Positions 25,881-35,001 of a stretch of 64,000 bases of DNA are shown piece by piece (position 1 is the stretch's first letter; the number at the start of each line of letters is the position of its first letter). The notes beneath the pieces were generated by a model. The model was not told where the DNA came from. It worked only from the letters and a program-made list of their open reading frames with translations, and did no database searches. The position numbers and the translations under genes are program-made. Source of the stretch: a virus; the IMG/VR virus record IMGVR_UViG_3300009509_000006, positions 34,059 to 98,058 of that record, one strand, 5' to 3'.

Positions 25881-27377
25881 TCAGATGTTGAGCACGCGGA
25901 CCTGCCCGTAGTATTCGGCCCGAAGCAGCTTCTTCGCGTAGCGGGTACGCAGACCCTTACGGAAGCTCATGTCATTCGGATCCAAAAAGGTGGGCGTCAC
26001 CTGCAACGGGACGTAGGGGGCCCAGACGAACCCGGCGTCCAAGTACGAGCCGCCCTTGAGGCCCAGCATCGCGAAGTCGGACGCGAAGAACGGGTCGACG
26101 TAGACGACCCACTTCCGCATCAGGGTGCCGGCCTTGTAGACGCCGAACTGGCCGTGCTGCGTCAGGGGGCGCGGCATGTCGGCCGGTCCGAGCGGGCTCT
26201 CGCCGCCGCTCACCCAGATCGGGCGGTAGTCGCCGTGAGTGGTCAGCTGCTCCATCAGAGCGCTGATCTCGGGCGAGGTCACAATCCAGTTCGCGGGCGC
26301 ACGCAGGGTCCGCTTGTGGATCGAGTTCGACACCTGGGACAGCACGGTGACGAGCGACCGGAGGTGATCGATCTCGGCGATGCCGCTGGGCGGGATCCGA
26401 TCGAAGGTTCCACCGCTCCCGGTCGAGGCCAGGAACAGGTCCTGGATGATCTCCCGGTCGATCTCGAGCGCCATCTCGCTCGCCGCTGCAGCGACCAGCT
26501 CCGTCTCGGCTTCGAGCCCCTGCAGGTTGCGCAGGTCCTCAGCCGCTTCCGAGCTCCAGAGAGCCTTGAGACGACGCGGGACCGCCTCGATGACGGCTTT
26601 CTTCACGTCGAGCTGCACTTCGGGCAGCTTGGTGTTGAGCTCGCCGTCGTAGCTGTAGTACATCTTGATCTGGTGGCCAGCCACGGGGTCGACGGCGAAA
26701 CGCACACCCGCCAGGGCACCATTCGAGTAGTTCAGGGTGCCGGCGGTGAGATCGGTGCTGGTGTCCGCGGCACCACTCGCCAGGAACTTGCCCTCCTGAA
26801 TCACGGACCCGGCCGCATCGAGGTCGCGGATGATCACGTCATAACCGCGATCGGTACTCGGCTTGTGCACCGGAGTGAGAGCCAGATTCACACTGATCGG
26901 CACACCACTGGGACCGTAGTCCGAGCCGGTACCGGTGGCGAGGATTTCACCATTCACGAACTCCGAGCTGTAGTAGCGGTCGAAGTCGCGCGGGAACACG
27001 TCGCCGCGAGTCGTTTCCCCCTTGGTCGTACCGTAGACATAGTCCAGGTAGAACACGGCGCCCTGCGGCGCGGTCATGGGCTGCACCGAGACGATCTCGT
27101 TCACGATCAAGTTCGGGAACACACGGCTGAGCACCGGGAACACGAATTTCGTGAAGTAGCCCACATTGATGGCCCTCGTCTCTTCGTTCATGCTACGAAG
27201 GTGACGGGCCTGGTTCTCGTAGAGCATCGCCATGCAGCCCCGAATGTAGCGCTCGTGGCGACAGCGATCCGGCATCCCTTCCAGAAGGGGTGCCCACTTC
27301 TCCACGTATGCGCCGACGAGACGGCGGTCGGCGATGGTGCCACTGCTATCTTCGATCACAACTCGACGAGCTTCCAC
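25881..27377 (-). CDS. Major capsid protein (T4 gp23-like)
   Basis: KWAPLLEG, IVSVQPMTAPQGAVFYLDY, RRLKALWSSEAAEDL, LEIDREII and APYVPL...RKGLRTRYA motifs. Confidence 0.97.
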   Translation of the reverse strand: MEARRVVIEDSSGTIADRRLVGAYVEKWAPLLEGMPDRCRHERYIRGCMAMLYENQARHLRSMNEETRAINVGYFTKFVFPVLSRVFPNLIVNEIVSVQPMTAPQGAVFYLDYVYGTTKGETTRGDVFPRDFDRYYSSEFVNGEILATGTGSDYGPSGVPISVNLALTPVHKPSTDRGYDVIIRDLDAAGSVIQEGKFLASGAADTSTDLTAGTLNYSNGALAGVRFAVDPVAGHQIKMYYSYDGELNTKLPEVQLDVKKAVIEAVPRRLKALWSSEAAEDLRNLQGLEAETELVAAAASEMALEIDREIIQDLFLASTGSGGTFDRIPPSGIAEIDHLRSLVTVLSQVSNSIHKRTLRAPANWIVTSPEISALMEQLTTHGDYRPIWVSGGESPLGPADMPRPLTQHGQFGVYKAGTLMRKWVVYVDPFFASDFAMLGLKGGSYLDAGFVWAPYVPLQVTPTFLDPNDMSFRKGLRTRYAKKLLRAEYYGQVRVLNI

Positions 27378-27408: not shown

Positions 27409-28959
27409 TCAATCCGCTCCAGGCGGCATCAACTCCTTCAGGGCTCCGAGGCCAACACCGAGACCATTGAAATCGGTGTCCTCACTGAGTGCTCTCCTGA
27501 CAGGCGTATCCGGCCAGGGCTCCTCCTCGTCGAACGGTGTGTGTCCGACTCCGCCCCCCAATTGACGGCGAATCCGCGAAACCGTGGATTCGATGGCCTC
27601 CAGCGAACGCTTCGGAGGCCGGAACTGCTCGATGATCGAGTCGACGTCTTCGCGAGACGACAGGGCCGATCGGTCGAACACTTCCCTGATCTGCTTGGCC
27701 CTCGGGTGCTTGCCGATACGTCTCTCCCCGTACAGCTGAAGGCCCGTGATGTGCAGTGCTTCGGCAGACTTGTGTAGCGCGGTCTCCAGGTCGCGCACAC
27801 GGTCGTGCAGCTGCTCGAACTGAGCTTCGGCGCGCTCGGTGAGCTCGCGGTGTTGCTCCTGCGCCTGTTCCTCCTCCAGACGCAGCTCTTCGAGATGCTC
27901 TTGCACAGAGGCGAGCTTCGACTGGAAGTCCGCCTCGGATTCGAACCGCGAGAGGTCTCCGACCAGTTGCCGCACACGCTCGGCATCCGGGTTCTGGTGC
28001 AACTCTCGCTCCATGTACCAGGCGAACCCGGCCACCTGGGCCAGAGTCACCAGCTTCTCGTTCTCTTCCTCGAGTTCGGCCACGCGGGCACGCACCTTGT
28101 CTCTCGACTCTCGCAGCCGAGCGATCTCTTCGTCTCTGCGCTCCAGGGCTTCGCGGGCTTCTCCGGATCGCATGAAAGGCGCGAGAGCCTCTCGGATCAC
28201 GTGGAAGGCCTCGACCTTCTGGAGCGTCTCGTCGCTGCGCAGCTCGGCCCGGACGTCCGCCTCGACGACCGTGCGCAGCTCGGACATTCGCGTCAGGATG
28301 TCCGTGGCGATCTCGGCATTCATGTCGGGATCGCCCGAAGCGTTCTCTTCGGGAAGGAACTCGTCCCCTTCCGGGAACTCGATACCTTCGAACAGGAGCA
28401 TGCTGTCAAGGTCGACACTCTCGCCGACCATTGTCGGGTAGGCGGTCTGATCCGCGGGGTCGGCAACGAAGTCGAATGCGATGAGCTTGTAGTCCTCCTG
28501 GACCACGTTCTCGCCGAACTCGTTTGGCTTCGTCGTCCCGTAGCCTCGGGACGAGATTCCGACCTTGCCTCCCTCACGCAGGATGGCTGCGAGATCCTTG
28601 CCCGCCGCCGTACCGAGGATCTGCGCCTCGCCGTACACGACATCGTCGCGGACCTCGAGCTTCGTGATCAGGTGGCTTGCCCTGGACAGCTTCGTTTTGC
28701 CGTCTTCTGGATGATCGAGCTCGCCGTAGCACTTTCGCTCAGCAAGGCGCGGCAACAGGCGCTTGATCTCCCGCTCCCACAGAGCCTTTGGGTAGACGCG
28801 CTTATTTTCGGTCGGGATACCGGCGCGGGCGAACTCACCGCGCATGAAAAGACGCTTCGTTGCCACGTCTTCGACGAGCTCGAGCTCGGTCCCCTCGATC
28901 CACTCGATGAGATGATTGAGGTCGCCGACCTTCGTGTCTTCTGTGAGCTGCTTCGTCAT
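27409..28959 (-). CDS. Prohead protease (gp21-like) fused to coiled-coil scaffold (gp22-like)
   Basis: NKRVYP, GELDHP, SHLI, VGISSRGYG and FDFVADP motifs; Glu-rich coiled-coil C-terminus. Start taken at the TGATG overlap (28959); 28974 is an alternative. Confidence 0.93.
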   Translation of the reverse strand: MTKQLTEDTKVGDLNHLIEWIEGTELELVEDVATKRLFMRGEFARAGIPTENKRVYPKALWEREIKRLLPRLAERKCYGELDHPEDGKTKLSRASHLITKLEVRDDVVYGEAQILGTAAGKDLAAILREGGKVGISSRGYGTTKPNEFGENVVQEDYKLIAFDFVADPADQTAYPTMVGESVDLDSMLLFEGIEFPEGDEFLPEENASGDPDMNAEIATDILTRMSELRTVVEADVRAELRSDETLQKVEAFHVIREALAPFMRSGEAREALERRDEEIARLRESRDKVRARVAELEEENEKLVTLAQVAGFAWYMERELHQNPDAERVRQLVGDLSRFESEADFQSKLASVQEHLEELRLEEEQAQEQHRELTERAEAQFEQLHDRVRDLETALHKSAEALHITGLQLYGERRIGKHPRAKQIREVFDRSALSSREDVDSIIEQFRPPKRSLEAIESTVSRIRRQLGGGVGHTPFDEEEPWPDTPVRRALSEDTDFNGLGVGLGALKELMPPGAD

Positions 28960-29189
28960 CAGTACCGCCGCCATCGAAACTGACCCCGTAGCGGGGTCCT
29001 ATCCAGGAGACCGGGCTTCTTGCGAACAACCCGGGACTTGCGCTGTGTGGCCTTCTGGTAGTTGAAAGCGTCTCTCCTCCCACTCGAGGTGGACACGCGG
29101 CGTCCCCGCGTCGAATGCGAGAGCGTAGGCCTTGTCGGTTTGATTCGCCGGCGCGCTACGATCCCGCGGTTCCGCCTCAGTCTTCCCCC
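28959..29189 (-). CDS. Arg/Lys-rich 76-codon open frame, candidate -1 frameshift extension of the upstream core protein
   Basis: Fills the intergenic gap, has no start codon near its 5' end, is entered at G GGG GAA, and ends TGATG on the protease start. Confidence 0.55.
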   Translation of the reverse strand, partial: GGRLRRNRGIVARRRIKPTRPTLSHSTRGRRVSTSSGRRDAFNYQKATQRKSRVVRKKPGLLDRTPLRGQFRWRRY

Positions 29190-29923
29190 TGGTCGTCGCC
29201 CTCCACGATGCTCTCGTACACCTCGCAGGCGTCGAGAAGAACCGAGAACTGCGATTCGAAAGCCTCTTGAAGAGCCTCGAGGTCCTCGATGTCACCCTCT
29301 TCGATGGCATCGACAACCGTGCCGGCGAGGTTCGCCAGGCCCACGCAGCTGTCCGCGAGCTCGGCGAGCTCTTCGTCCTCGTCTTCGTTCGCGAAGAAGC
29401 GGAACGCCTCGCTCAGAAGCGCCGCGATCTCCTGGATGTACCCGAAACCCTCGTGCGCTTCGGTCAGGACATCGTCACGGTCGATCTCGACCGCCTCGGG
29501 CTCGGTGTGATCGACGAGACCCTTGATCTCGCTGATCAGGTCCGTGATGCGCCCCAGGGCGACATCGTCTTCCTTGCGAGTGCCCTTTCGGAGAGCCGCA
29601 GCTGCGACCTTCTCCTTGTGGGTCTGCCACTGCGGGCGTTCGTACTTCTTCTCGCGCTTTCGAGCGGCAGCCTTTCCTTTGCCACCTCGGCGATAGCGCC
29701 GGCCACGAAGAAGCTCCTTCATGGGAGTCCTTGCCAATGTCTTTTTCGTCCCGATGCGACGCTTGATTCGGACGCGCTCTTCGAGCTCGCCGTCCTTGTC
29801 GTCGTCGTCGCCCTCGAGCTCGGGGTCCGTCGTGACCTCGTCCTCCTCGGGGAGCACGTCTTCGCTCAGGAGCCCGATCGCCTTGAGGTCCTCTTGCAGG
29901 GACCGCACTACGACGTTGTACAT
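29177..29923 (-). CDS. Prohead core protein (gp67/gp68-like)
   Basis: Alternating acidic and Arg/Lys blocks; position between portal and protease genes. Confidence 0.65.
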   Translation of the reverse strand: MYNVVVRSLQEDLKAIGLLSEDVLPEEDEVTTDPELEGDDDDKDGELEERVRIKRRIGTKKTLARTPMKELLRGRRYRRGGKGKAAARKREKKYERPQWQTHKEKVAAAALRKGTRKEDDVALGRITDLISEIKGLVDHTEPEAVEIDRDDVLTEAHEGFGYIQEIAALLSEAFRFFANEDEDEELAELADSCVGLANLAGTVVDAIEEGDIEDLEALQEAFESQFSVLLDACEVYESIVEGDDQGED

Positions 29924-29934
29924 TCCGATTCCTC

Positions 29935-30819
29935 CTACTCGCTCAGTTTGTCTGCCACTCCCTGCAGGAAGCCCCCCGCGACCTGATACGCCGGGAATTC
30001 CAAGGCCAGTGCGTCATACAGTCTGCTCAACTGTTCGGGGCAAGAAAGCCCAAGTGTCGCATCTTCGACGAGACGCCCGAGGCCTTCGAGGTCGTCCGCA
30101 AGGTCTCTCCCGAACGAGACAAGAGCATCGCCGAGGCCATCTTCGAGCCTCGAAGTGCCTTCTGTGATGCCCTCTACAGAAGCATTCACCGAAGAGGCCA
30201 AATCGTCAAGACCTTCGGCCAGTTTCCTGACCTCTTGCCTGACGAGCAACAGGGTCTCGGCATCCGTGCCCGCGTTCTGGTGCTCCAGGAGTTCTGTGAG
30301 CCCAGGCTCGAAAGCCTCGTCGACCTCACCCGCAACCGCCTCGAATTCCGAGGACTTGGCCTCGTAGGCCTGGCGCCACGGACGAGGCCTCTTGATCGCT
30401 TCGACCATTCTGTCGACACGCTGTTCGTCAGTGAGTGGCGGGCAGTGCGGTGCGATCGCCTCGAGGAGTTCCATGGCGGCGCTCTCGTTGCCTTCGGCGA
30501 ACAAACGAACGGCACGCATGGCATCTCGGATCCGGAAATACTCGGCGTCCTCACCCCTGTAGATCGGGATCTCAAGGGGCTTGGAGTCGACAAGGTCCGA
30601 GCCGTCAAAGCTCAGATCGAGAAAGCGGCCGTCCTCGGAGGCCACGATCGCGCGGTCTTCGAAGGTACCCACGGTCCAGAAACGGACCCCGTCCTCGAAA
30701 ATGCGATCCTGGTTTCGTTCGATGGCGTGCTGAACGTCACCAATCTTGGCTTCGAACGAGCCAGAAAGGATGGGCCGAAGAGCTTCGGCAGGGACGAACG
30801 TTTCAGCCTGTTTCGACAC
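29935..30819 (-). CDS. Hypothetical acidic head-module protein
   Basis: GAGGT ribosome-binding site; follows the portal gene. Confidence 0.7.
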   Translation of the reverse strand: MSKQAETFVPAEALRPILSGSFEAKIGDVQHAIERNQDRIFEDGVRFWTVGTFEDRAIVASEDGRFLDLSFDGSDLVDSKPLEIPIYRGEDAEYFRIRDAMRAVRLFAEGNESAAMELLEAIAPHCPPLTDEQRVDRMVEAIKRPRPWRQAYEAKSSEFEAVAGEVDEAFEPGLTELLEHQNAGTDAETLLLVRQEVRKLAEGLDDLASSVNASVEGITEGTSRLEDGLGDALVSFGRDLADDLEGLGRLVEDATLGLSCPEQLSRLYDALALEFPAYQVAGGFLQGVADKLSE

Positions 30820-30823
30820 CGCT

Positions 30824-32659
30824 CTACCTCGCGTGATGCGGCCTCCGGTTTAGCTCTCGAGTGTGCATTCGAATCTCCCGGACCTGAGCAGCAATGCGAC
30901 TCTGCTCCCTGACCAGGCGCCCCCAAGGCGTGTTCGAGTACATATCCCCACGAAAGCCCATGCCAGATGGCACCCGCTCAGAGATACCATTGCCCCCCGC
31001 ACCGATCAAGTACGGTGCCCTGGGGGTGCCAGTGAACAGCCGAGGACGCCGGCCGCCGAGAAGCAGGTTTCCGTATGGGGCCCGGGACTCGAATCCGCCG
31101 CCACCTTCCTGCCCACCTTGTGCAGCCATCATAGCCTTCTGCATGAGGGCTTGCGCCTGGCCTTCGATAGCGCCCTGACGCACAGCCTCCTCGTCGCGCT
31201 GATCCATGATAGTGCGAATCTCGTCGTCCGTCAGGCCCTCACCGTGCTTCAGCGCGTATTGGAGCGATACGTGCTCGCGCATACGGCTCATCCAATCGGC
31301 CCGAGCGTTCTTCACCTCGAGCTGCGCCAGCTCGAAGATCGAGCTCGGCACCGTGAACTTCACCTCGAACTCGACGTTGTCCGGTGGGATCCCAAGAGCC
31401 GCCAGGTGCACACGGAAGACCTTCTCGAGTCCCTCGCGCAGGCACTGCTGCAGTCTCATGACCGTGCGCGCGAAACGGACGTCCTCGCTCGACAGGATCG
31501 CCCGGTTCACGCCCTCTTCCTGTGAGAAGTAGGCCTTCGGCACCTGCATCGCCGCGAACAGCTTGCGAAGGAAATATTCGATGTCTTCCATGTGCTGCCA
31601 GTTCGGACCGCCCAGCAGCTCGATTCGTGTAGCCTCGGTACCATTGATCACAGGCACGAAGAAGTCTTCGTCTTGCGCCAGTGCGTCGAAGCGCAGGTCG
31701 CGCTGATTCGTGATCGGGTTGACGAACTTCTTCTTTTTGTACTGCTGCCGGATCTTGTGCAGCATCTTGAGGGCTTCGTGCGGCGGCAGGTTGCCCGTGT
31801 CGACGTAGAAAGCGAAGCGCTCGGGAGCGCGCTGCAGCCTGTAGACCAACGCAGCGTCTTCCAGAAGGATCAGCCGCTTCCAGATCCAGCGAGCCGGCTC
31901 GAGAATGCTCCAGCCGTAGACAGAGCGGCGGTGCTTCGCGCGCATTCGAAAGTGCGCGACCTGCCAGTTCTCGAACGGGATCACTTCGTTGTAGCCGACG
32001 CTTCTCGGCGGCGTCGCCGAGAGCTCGTTCGGCTGCCCAGGGCCTTTGTACTGGAATTGGAAGCGCTTCGAGAGCAGGTCCTGGAACTCTTTCGGCGAGA
32101 ATCCGATGCGCCGCTTGAAGTCCTGGACGAAGCCGTAGAGCTCGCCACGGGGTCCCTCGATGCGCCGCACAGAGTGCGCAGGCAAGTGATTCAGCCCGAC
32201 GACGCCCTCCTCGGCAACCAGGATCTCTTCGTAGTCGTTGCCTGTCTTCGACGTCGACCGGGCGATCTCCCACAGGTCCCTATCTTCCAAGCGCAGGGTC
32301 CGGTGGAACAGATCGTTTCCGAGTTGGGCAATATCGCGGTCCGGGCTCTCCACCCAGACACGGCGCCCACCTGGTGTGTCTGGCTGCGTCGCGTCGTCGG
32401 CGTAGATGTTGAGCGCGGCGCTCACCTCCGGGTAGTCGTCCATCGTTTCGTAGTCGATGAACCGCGACATGAGGTCTTGCTCCAGCTTGAGGTAGTCCGC
32501 CACGACATCGTAGCCGTAGCTCTGGAGCATATCGTAGGCCGAGCCTGGAAGCGTAGCGGCTGTCGCTCCTTGAGCCAGGCGCAGCTGCACCTGCTCTTTG
32601 TCCCTGCCGAACCAGGAGCGGATACCACCGAACACGCGGTTCATGAAGCCAGGCATCAA
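30824..32659 (-). CDS. Portal protein (T4 gp20-like)
   Basis: YETMDDYPEVSAALNIYADD, LLEDAALVYRLQRAPERFAFYVDTGNLP, EDFFVP and DIEYFLRKLFAAMQVPK motifs. Confidence 0.97.
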   Translation of the reverse strand: MMPGFMNRVFGGIRSWFGRDKEQVQLRLAQGATAATLPGSAYDMLQSYGYDVVADYLKLEQDLMSRFIDYETMDDYPEVSAALNIYADDATQPDTPGGRRVWVESPDRDIAQLGNDLFHRTLRLEDRDLWEIARSTSKTGNDYEEILVAEEGVVGLNHLPAHSVRRIEGPRGELYGFVQDFKRRIGFSPKEFQDLLSKRFQFQYKGPGQPNELSATPPRSVGYNEVIPFENWQVAHFRMRAKHRRSVYGWSILEPARWIWKRLILLEDAALVYRLQRAPERFAFYVDTGNLPPHEALKMLHKIRQQYKKKKFVNPITNQRDLRFDALAQDEDFFVPVINGTEATRIELLGGPNWQHMEDIEYFLRKLFAAMQVPKAYFSQEEGVNRAILSSEDVRFARTVMRLQQCLREGLEKVFRVHLAALGIPPDNVEFEVKFTVPSSIFELAQLEVKNARADWMSRMREHVSLQYALKHGEGLTDDEIRTIMDQRDEEAVRQGAIEGQAQALMQKAMMAAQGGQEGGGGFESRAPYGNLLLGGRRPRLFTGTPRAPYLIGAGGNGISERVPSGMGFRGDMYSNTPWGRLVREQSRIAAQVREIRMHTRELNRRPHHAR

Positions 32660-32973: not shown

Positions 32974-35001
32974 TCACCCCACGAGGAAAGGCATGGACCC
33001 CCACTCTCTCGCTGTGTCCACCGACAACCCCATCGAGTTCAGCGCATCCCGGTGCCCAGCAGCCACTGCATGTTGTTGCTCAACCATCCAGGCCTGGCTG
33101 TCCGGGTCATCGTAGGTGCTCAGGCCCATCAGGAACGGGGTCGGCGACACGTTCCGAACGGTCTTGAGCGAGTACAGTGCCCCGGCCATCGCGTCGGAAA
33201 CATCCTTTGCACCATTGCGTGGCTTGAGCACCTTGCGCTTCTCCCAGTCGGCCTCAAGGGACTGCAACTGGTTCAACACAGGGTTGTAGGCGTAACACGA
33301 CACGCGGTCCTCGTACAAAGCCTGCTTGAGAGTCTGGTACGGATCCCACGTTCTGTCCATCGAAACTTGATCCGTCGTGAACCCCTTCTTCGACAGCGTC
33401 TGCAAGCTGTCGATGGACTGCCACTGATCCATCGTGACGTGCACGATCGGGAATCCGTGAGCCTTCAGGTCGTAGACGAGTTGGCGGTACAGCGCGAAGT
33501 CGAGGTCCCCTCCGGGAGGTGGGACGATTTCGAGGATCAGGTCGATCACATACTGCGGTGCGAGCTCCTCGTAGACCCGGAGGCTCGAGTCCATTCGCCG
33601 CACCGGCACCTGCCCACCAATGTGGGCCATGCAGAGACCGGCCGAGCAGTTGTTCAGAGCGGGGTCGATGTGCACGTGGCGCTGCGCCGACGGATTCAAG
33701 AGTGGGATCAGCTTCTGCTCGGTCTCCTTGAATCCCGTGCGAACCGCGATCGCCCGCACAAGCTTCTCCCACAGGAAGTCGCCTCCAAGCGACGGGTCGA
33801 AGACCTCCGAGGTGAAAGGGTGCTCCCGAGTCGCATCCACCATGTCGTGGATCTTGTCTCGGCGTTGAATGAACGGCGAGACTGCGGTGGTTGCAATCCC
33901 GGCCAGGTCACGAATCGAGCCCTCGAGGTCGGAGGTGAACTCCGATCGCAGGTCCTCGGGAACCTCGATGAGCACTGTGCGCTCTGGTTGGTTCTCCTTG
34001 ATCAGGACAGCTTCGTCCTCTCCCAGAATCCGGGAGCGCACCTGCTCGTTGCCGCACAGTACGTAGAAGCGCCGGGGACCATAGTCGTCTGGCTTGACAT
34101 CCCAGAGTGCGTAGTCACGGACAAAGATCGTCGAGTCGTACTTCGCCGCTTCGATTCTCTGCTGGATGAACGAATCGTGCGTCGCCTTCGAGCTCGGGAG
34201 GAAGAGCTTGCCAGCGCGTCCATATCGCGAGTGGATCCGGCGCTTGATCGAATCGTACAGGTCTTTCGCCATGTTGACCGCGCCGAAACGGTCGTTCGCC
34301 TTCTTCTTCCTGACGGGCAGGAAGTTGCCCTCGTCGATGAGGCCAGCGATCAGGTTCATGCCGAGTGCGCCACGCGGCGTTGTCGCCCTGGAGACCACCA
34401 GCACGTTGTTGGGGAACCGGATGTTCTTCTGCGTGATCTTGAAGGGGAAGTGCTCAGCGAAGTAGGGGCTCTGCGCGATCTTGCCCACAACGTTCTTGAG
34501 CGCGACCTCTTTGGCCAGCTCCTCGTTCGCGCTGAAACAAGCAATCGAGATGGGGGCCTCTTTCGAAAGACCGTAGGCCCGCTGCGGCTGATGCAAACAC
34601 GAGAGCTCGTAGAGCATCCGACAGATGCCGATCGAGCACGAGAACGTCTTGCCCGTCCCGATCGCTCCCGTGAAGATCACCTCGCTGTACTGCCCATCGA
34701 AGACCTCGATCAGGTCATCGAGCAGTTGTGGGAAGATCACGTTGCACGTCTCGCCCAGATAGTACGGGTCGAGGATGAACGTGCGCATGTCGACGGGCTC
34801 GCGGATGTACTGCGCCGTCGCGATCTGGTCGACAACCCTTCTGCCTTCGTGCTCCAGGTCTTCGCCGAGCGCCTCCGCATACATCTGGAGCACGAGCTCT
34901 TTCTCGCCAGGCGAGAGCTTGTGGAATTCAGCAGCTACCAACTCTTCGAGGTCGTCGACAGTCTGCTCGCTCCAAGATCGACCCTGCTCCTCGTGGATCA
35001 T
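32974..35001 (-). CDS. terL: Terminase large subunit
   Basis: Walker A GAIGTGKT, Walker B GLIDE, nuclease motifs HIDPA...DQWQS...KDVSDA. Confidence 0.93.
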   Translation of the reverse strand: MIHEEQGRSWSEQTVDDLEELVAAEFHKLSPGEKELVLQMYAEALGEDLEHEGRRVVDQIATAQYIREPVDMRTFILDPYYLGETCNVIFPQLLDDLIEVFDGQYSEVIFTGAIGTGKTFSCSIGICRMLYELSCLHQPQRAYGLSKEAPISIACFSANEELAKEVALKNVVGKIAQSPYFAEHFPFKITQKNIRFPNNVLVVSRATTPRGALGMNLIAGLIDEGNFLPVRKKKANDRFGAVNMAKDLYDSIKRRIHSRYGRAGKLFLPSSKATHDSFIQQRIEAAKYDSTIFVRDYALWDVKPDDYGPRRFYVLCGNEQVRSRILGEDEAVLIKENQPERTVLIEVPEDLRSEFTSDLEGSIRDLAGIATTAVSPFIQRRDKIHDMVDATREHPFTSEVFDPSLGGDFLWEKLVRAIAVRTGFKETEQKLIPLLNPSAQRHVHIDPALNNCSAGLCMAHIGGQVPVRRMDSSLRVYEELAPQYVIDLILEIVPPPGGDLDFALYRQLVYDLKAHGFPIVHVTMDQWQSIDSLQTLSKKGFTTDQVSMDRTWDPYQTLKQALYEDRVSCYAYNPVLNQLQSLEADWEKRKVLKPRNGAKDVSDAMAGALYSLKTVRNVSPTPFLMGLSTYDDPDSQAWMVEQQHAVAAGHRDALNSMGLSVDTAREWGSMPFLVG

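Follow-up and report, generated by a model that had tools for sequence, protein, structure and literature searches.

We propose that an acidic gene in the head module of an uncultured T4-type phage gives rise to two products, and that a -1 ribosomal slip at the heptamer G GGG GAA, near the end of the gene, converts its 248-amino acid (aa) product into a 321-aa form with a strongly basic tail. The gene is located on the minus strand of a stretch of 64,000 nucleotides (nt), hereafter the window, which covers positions 34,059 to 98,058 of the IMG/VR record IMGVR_UViG_3300009509_000006, a 98-kb viral contig of a phage from sediments, and it lies between the genes for the portal and the prohead protease. 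An earlier note on this DNA had suggested that a -1 frameshift in a "head core gene" provides a fraction of the protein with an Arg/Lys-rich tail; the frameshift and the tail are strongly supported by the comparison described below, the DNA binding that it also proposed for the tail is not supported, and "head core gene" or "prohead core protein" is a label based only on position and composition. We estimate the probability of the two-way decoding at about 0.84. For the family of related loci as a whole we regard the frameshift reading as very probable, and for this particular phage as probable. Comparison among the relatives shows that the additional frame is translated in these loci and that ribosomes enter it from the upstream gene by a -1 shift; for this phage, we infer where exactly the slip takes place and how efficient it is.

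The open reading frame (ORF) of the short form (29177..29923, minus strand), for which an exhaustive phmmer search retrieved 35 homologs, ends with GAC CAG GGG GAA GAC TGA, with the stop codon at 29179-29177. The proposed slip site (29183..29189, minus strand) is in phase, with GGG in the P-site and GAA in the A-site, it precedes the TGA by one codon, and it is the sole heptamer candidate in the 112-nt overlap of the zero and -1 frames. The -1 frame is free of stop codons from 29291 to the TAC codon at 28964-28962 (110 codons) and ends at the TGA at 28961-28959, which overlaps the start codon of the protease-scaffold gene as TGATG (28957..28961, minus strand). The sequence is therefore exactly as previously described, with the -1 frame filling the gap of about 215 nt on the minus strand between the 248-aa gene and the protease gene and stopping on the protease ATG. 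It was also correct to state that this frame has no start codon near its 5' end, as the sole in-frame start is a GTG (29094..29096, minus strand), which is located 80 nt past the zero-frame stop and would give a product of 45 aa. The tail in the -1 frame after the slip (28962..29183, minus strand) is rich in Arg and Lys as claimed (21 and 5 residues, respectively, net charge +24) and comprises 74 codons. The 248-aa protein has a net charge of -29 and a pI of 4.5, and the predicted long form of 321 aa has a net charge of -4.

Considered in isolation, the window is ambiguous with respect to codon usage, folding and the odds of an open frame, and therefore the case rests on comparison. From the base composition we estimate that an open frame of 76 codons has a chance of about 10% in DNA with 62% guanine and cytosine (GC). 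Thus, the openness of the -1 frame alone does not exceed chance, while its homology to a conserved peptide does. Among the codon positions in the gap, the third position of the -1 frame has the highest GC content.

Relatives were collected by an alignment-driven scan of IMG/VR with the protease, from which 80 of the 211 relatives' loci were taken in; when IMG/VR was scanned with single sequences, neither the core protein nor the protease gave any match, and a word-index search with the core protein returned only the core protein itself. The protease-scaffold protein has many metagenomic homologs, all of them with sequence identity of 46% or less. Of the 80 relatives fetched, 70 encode a homolog of the 248-aa protein upstream of the protease (with the locus of the window, L001, the number is 71), directly so in all 67 loci in which both genes could be placed, and the gap between the two genes spans about 136-290 nt in all loci but one, in which the upstream gene was mis-assigned. 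Translation of these gaps reveals a conserved peptide with the consensus (E)AWRxRRTAYSSGRRExIG..NPFKRKTRKVKKK..TPFRSNFRWRRY-stop, with KRKTRKVKKK as its middle segment. A tail profile derived from 52 related loci of metagenomes, to which the window did not contribute, matches the -1 frame of the window with an E-value of 7e-12 in hmmsearch (the matched segment spans 28962-29291), and the runner-up among 1200 six-frame segments obtained E=0.44 with the same profile. The alignment covers profile positions 3-56 of 56 and places the conserved stretch of the tail, for which homology with the family peptide is seen, at 28962..29114 on the minus strand. The C-terminal motif of the window, TP(L)RGQFRWRRY, agrees with the family consensus at all but three positions.

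No Pfam or PHROG family was matched by the tail peptide. In GenBank phages there was no DNA match to the window and no tblastn match for either the window tail or a consensus-like tail; this clade is without a cultured member in that collection. A profile search of the PDB matched only designed coiled coils, and the AlphaFold model of the tail alone, almost all coil with a predicted local distance difference test score of 66, was of low confidence and was not used.

Frame relation, slip sites and selection were counted over 53 distinct loci, including the window, with a GC content of 44-69%. Pairwise differences in the tail amount to 0.46, 0.36 and 0.64 at codon positions 1, 2 and 3, respectively, and the median proportion of nonsynonymous differences (pN) is 0.40 against 0.80 for synonymous ones (pS), with pN lower than pS in 99.9% of pairs. 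All six codons are used for the invariant Arg residues, and both AGY and TCN for the invariant Ser. As judged from these substitution patterns, the tail peptide is under purifying selection and is translated in the family.

Relative to the upstream gene, the peptide is in the -1 frame in 49 of the 53 loci and in the +1 frame in none; for one locus (L013), an initial assignment to frame 0 was revised to -1 when its true upstream gene was considered. The conservation of the -1 frame in relatives, proposed in the earlier note as a check of the frameshift, is hereby confirmed. In most loci there is no ATG, GTG or TTG between the upstream stop of the -1 frame and the conserved motif. In three loci (L010, L015 and L068) the peptide is in frame 0 behind a stop codon and has its own start (ATG or GTG), forming a free-standing small gene for the basic peptide (at 4705-4920 in L010). 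To judge from these sequences, the three loci show evolutionary switching between frameshift fusion and separate expression.

About 41 of the 49 loci have an in-phase heptamer of the canonical type X XXY YYZ where the two frames overlap, mostly 0-1 codons before the stop. By our estimate, a particular in-phase XXXYYYN heptamer would occur by chance at any one codon position with a probability of about 1/256. The types observed are G GGA AAC (18 loci), G GGA AAA (8), C CCT TTC/T/G (7) and A AAA AAA/G (3). In L042 and L051 an upstream stop in the -1 frame leaves an overlap of 10-13 nt, which is essentially the heptamer alone. With regard to conservation of the heptamer, also proposed as a check, GGGGGAA occurs at the homologous place in four relatives (L021, L031, L049 and L057), while most relatives instead carry an X XXY YYZ heptamer. 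In the FastTree phylogeny of protease-scaffold proteins the window is sister to L002 and L004 with support of 99, and these two loci have G GGA AAC exactly where the window has GGGGGAA. On the same tree GGGGGAA requires four independent origins. The canonical heptamer has thus been replaced by GGGGGAA at least four times independently, which is comparative evidence for a slip site that works in bacteria generally rather than one particular to actinobacterial hosts. According to the authors of PRFect, GGGGGAA is, across about a thousand annotated frameshifts in actinophage tail chaperones, the sole sequence of the "fivetwo" motif class, and its slip is explained by a G:U pair formed when tRNA-Glu re-pairs on GGA (PMC10885494). 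In the corynephage phi16, a GGGGGAA frameshift was predicted together with an internal Shine-Dalgarno (SD) sequence (PMC5506516). The window uses the very same heptamer as this actinophage class (PMC10885494; phi16, PMC5506516). The earlier description of GGGGGAA as a known tail-chaperone slip site holds for actinophages, but its attribution to mycobacteriophage L5 was not confirmed.

Two groups of loci deviate from the common pattern. In L025 (4690-4725), L027, L059 and L065 the upstream gene ends with CGC CCT ACC (AAG) TAG; in L025, L027 and L065 the tail is still encoded in the -1 frame, with an overlap of 22-85 nt that contains no canonical heptamer, and the tail of L059 is degenerate and failed the motif search. 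The sole option for re-pairing in these loci is a P-site slip on C CCT, and CGC CCT ACC may represent a slip-site type that has escaped recognition. In a second subgroup (L006, L020, L035, L073 and L080, with proteins P0131, P0133, P0135 and P0138) the zero frame runs 2-18 codons past the slip site. The slip site of this subgroup, C CCT TTC/T, is located inside a conserved K-K-M-P-(A/P)-F-(I/L)-K-K-K motif, and therefore the protein motif and the slip site coincide.

Upstream SD-like motifs, as in dnaX, and "shifty stops" are known kinds of stimulators of bacterial frameshifting. In the window an internal SD-like GGAGG (29200..29204, minus strand) is located 10 nt upstream of the heptamer and is a possible dnaX-type stimulator; it is weak evidence on its own, because the GAG-rich acidic tails make such motifs common in relatives. 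The stop codon follows the slip site after one codon. In the relatives, folding of the 70 nt that follow the site is more stable than that of dinucleotide-shuffled sequences (mean z-score -1.8, with 57% below -1.64). The codons for EAW are often paired with those for TAYSS in this downstream stem, a feature that the window has lost. Strong stem-loops with z-scores between -3.2 and -5.4, in which E-E-A-W codons are paired with T-A-Y-S-S, are found in L018, L024, L026, L029, L036 and L061, and the most conserved part of the tail may be under both protein and RNA-structure constraint. The inverted repeat GACCCCG-CTA-CGGGGTC (28982..28998, minus strand), pointed out in the earlier note as a hairpin just upstream of the protease start, is present within the tail codons T-P-L-R-G, but it is not a conserved element: all 7 pairs are formed in 2 of the 53 loci and the most common number is 2-4 of 7. 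From this distribution we regard the hairpin as a by-product of the coding sequence.

Several observations on the window and its relatives weigh against the two-way decoding. The heptamer GGGGGAA does not conform to the canonical X XXY YYZ. The RNA downstream of it folds no better than shuffled sequences (z-scores -0.6 and +0.2). The codon-usage likelihood of the tail is near zero, with a minimal log-likelihood ratio of 0.9 compared to 41 +/- 10 for true coding windows of the phage, on a scale where off-frame windows score -45 +/- 11; the Arg-rich composition depresses this score. The window tail is the most diverged member of the family, in which the EAW motif has been lost and a near-invariant Tyr has been replaced by Thr. 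Finally, the three relatives that express the peptide from its own start indicate that the fusion is not obligatory for its function.

The divergence of the tail, the non-canonical heptamer, the absence of a significant downstream structure and the low codon-usage score would also be expected if the frameshift were ancestral to the family but decaying or already lost here, with GGGAAAC having drifted to GGGGGAA and the tail now serving mainly as a spacer or leader of the protease gene. We consider this scenario improbable, as the frame is still open over 110 codons, retains the highly significant match to the family profile and the nearly complete C-terminal motif, and keeps the TGATG overlap. 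Moreover, GGGGGAA has arisen independently four times at this place while the tail stayed conserved, and it is an established slip motif (PMC10885494). Somewhat less likely still is that the window encodes a free 45-aa protein initiated at the internal GTG at 29096, rather than an extension of the upstream protein. This GTG is in frame and is preceded at a distance of 6 nt by a weak GGGGA, and the free-standing genes in L010, L015 and L068 indicate that a separate peptide can function. However, the GTG is located inside the conserved motif, the profile alignment begins five codons upstream of it, and with initiation there the Arg residues that are invariant at positions 2, 4 and 5 of the alignment would not be translated. 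None of the relatives has a start codon at this position, and the -1 frame is open for all 29 codons from the slip site to the GTG.

Two further explanations have a negligible probability. When GC-rich DNA is translated out of frame, the product is typically rich in Arg and stop codons are often absent, and together with the near-zero codon-usage score this could make the frame a by-product of high GC content in a non-coding gap, which in our view is already refuted by the profile match and by the purifying selection on the tail over relatives of widely different GC content, and which is likewise opposed by the ratio of 49:0 for the -1 versus the +1 frame. Homopolymer runs are error-prone, and an indel in the G run could hide a simple in-frame fusion; however, the contigs of three other studies (from marine sediment, sediment and sludge) are identical over 29167-29385, with no differences and no indels, and therefore there is no assembly error, about 50 relatives share the -1 offset at heptamers without long homopolymers, and no natural in-frame fusion of the tail was found among the longer proteins or among all fetched proteins, although this search was weak. 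Being identical, the contigs of other studies offered no variation for judging selection, and among public runs no RNA data set carrying this sequence was listed. Over positions 28700-29700, the sequence of the window occurs identically in contigs of at least four studies (from marine sediment, sediment and sludge), and therefore the phage, or a strain very close to it, has a wide distribution in sediments.

According to the two-way decoding that we favor, most ribosomes would stop at the TGA at 29179-29177 and produce the short form. A fraction would slip back by one base on G GGG GAA, with tRNA-Gly re-pairing from GGG to GGG and tRNA-Glu from GAA to GGA, the latter with a G:U pair at the middle position, and would then read 74 more codons in the -1 frame to complete the long form, in which the charge of the basic tail would almost cancel that of the acidic body. 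The tail represents the window's copy of a peptide conserved in a large clade of uncultured phages with T4-type heads. By analogy with the core genes of T4 discussed below, its role is most likely that of a basic partner that fixes the proportion in which core protein with and without the basic part is present in the prohead, the latter form being acidic only.

The frameshifted ribosomes would terminate on the TGATG at the start of the protease-scaffold gene. The longest ORF of the protease starts with the ATG at 28974, but the family pattern favors the ATG at 28959, because the tail stop overlaps or nearly touches the protease ATG in the family and because the N-terminus conforms to M-x3-4-LTED. 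In 42 of the 53 loci the tail stop and the protease ATG are at most 8 nt apart, most commonly as TGATG or TAATG. No good SD sequence precedes either ATG of the protease, whereas AGGAGGA is found at ideal spacing before the core and capsid genes, and the calculated duplexes with the anti-SD sequence have energies of -6.3 and -5.7 kcal/mol for the candidate protease starts, compared to -10.2 for the core and capsid genes. With such a weak ribosome-binding site, part of the translation of the protease gene is probably fed by termination-reinitiation. Coupling of the frameshift to protease translation, as read from the arrangement of these sequences, fits the data but is unproven; tight packing of the genes and moderately SD-like G-rich codons (W-R-R) could also account for the stop-start pattern. 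It is tempting to go further and to imagine that a single recoding event sets two doses, i.e. both the ratio of the long to the short form of the core protein and how much prohead protease each head receives. Only frameshifted ribosomes would then reach the TGATG, the protease-scaffold would be translated mainly by their reinitiation, and GGGGGAA, GGGAAAC, CCCTTTC and the unexplained CGC CCT ACC would be interchangeable settings of efficiency. We regard this extended scenario as speculative and rather unlikely.

The slip mechanism itself is a textbook -1 frameshift, as in lambda G/GT and other tail chaperones, T7 10A/10B and A2 5A/5B. Tail chaperone genes and a few capsid genes of tailed phages are well-known cases of programmed frameshifting. 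As in lambda G/GT and the tail chaperones, the -1 slip would take place in a gene of a structural module, a few codons ahead of its stop, and would set a fixed ratio of short and extended products, and the relatives' G GGA AAC/A is close to the lambda slip site, G GGA AAG. On the other hand, the gene analyzed here belongs to the head module, between the portal (PF07230) and the protease (PF03420), and not to the tail module, and the added part is a short basic peptide that ends on the start of the prohead protease rather than a domain that binds the tape measure protein. Owing to this location, membership in the family of G/GT tail assembly chaperones was rejected.

Frameshifts by -1 near the end of head genes have been described for gene 10A/10B of T7 and T3 and for gp5A/5B of the Lactobacillus phage A2, and there too a shift near the 3' end of a head gene yields a minor, longer head protein. 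Unlike these major capsid proteins, the product of the window gene is a non-capsid, acidic scaffold/core-like protein whose gene precedes that of the protease, and the extension is a strongly basic peptide with high conservation. In Escherichia coli dnaX (tau/gamma), the -1 slip is stimulated by an internal SD sequence about 10 nt upstream and by a strong downstream hairpin, and the shift truncates the protein. The GGAGG of the window is positioned similarly, 10 nt upstream of its heptamer, but the shift would extend the protein instead of truncating it, and there is no significant hairpin in the window.

With respect to gene order, the most similar arrangement is found in T4, where the portal gene 20 is followed by small core genes, the protease gene 21 and the capsid gene. 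T4 gp67 ends in a poly-acidic tail and the C-terminal half of gp68 is strongly basic, so that there as well an acidic module is followed by a basic one abutting the protease start, and the stops and starts of the gene pairs 67/68 and 68/21 overlap by one base. However, in T4 these are two separate proteins with separate initiation, whereas here they would be joined by the frameshift. The place between portal and protease and the low-complexity character, acidic in one part and basic in the other, are common to both arrangements. Homology to gp67 and gp68 was rejected, since hhalign gave probabilities of 21% for the core family versus gp67 and 0.2% versus gp68, and 0.2% for the tail versus gp68; Pfam GP67 (PF17634) and PHROG 1064 and 1049 also have no match to the 248-aa protein (P0001) or to the tails. 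"Prohead core protein" stays a positional label because these profile comparisons show no homology. In the searchable literature we found no description of a frameshift in a head-assembly core gene of T4-type phages.

The tail is missed by gene callers, since it has no Pfam or PHROG family and appears as an empty gap of 200 nt. Its recognition reveals a hidden conserved peptide of virion assembly and suggests how phages could set the stoichiometry of acidic and basic core components, and possibly the dose of the protease.

The remainder of the T4-type head module, also on the minus strand, was assigned by Pfam and PHROG searches. The portal gene (PF07230) is located at 30824-32659, and a 294-aa gene with no assigned family (29935-30819) separates it from the 248-aa gene. 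The latter has a strong SD sequence, AGGAGGA, and its product matches no Pfam or PHROG family. The next gene (27409-28959 or 27409-28974, depending on the start codon, 516 or 521 aa) encodes the prohead protease of the Peptidase_S77 family (PF03420) together with a long coiled-coil, scaffold-like C-terminal part, and it is followed by a gene for a gp23-like capsid protein (25881-27377). In the longer ORF (27409-28974) the S77 domain occupies residues ~40-185 and is joined to a coiled-coil region of about 330 residues. There is no separate scaffold gene between the protease and the capsid, and in the window no nested scaffold start with a strong SD sequence was seen inside the protease gene.

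The N-terminus of the 248-aa family is conserved as ..(I/V)TSLEEDFKxIGL, with the version RSLQEDLKAIGL in the window (29891-29923). The family pattern, L-x-E followed by D, is like the cleavage consensus of the T4 prohead protease, and S-L-Q-E|D in the window is similar to a site of T4-type prohead proteases. By this resemblance, the first ~10 residues of the 248-aa protein may constitute a removable leader that targets it to the capsid.

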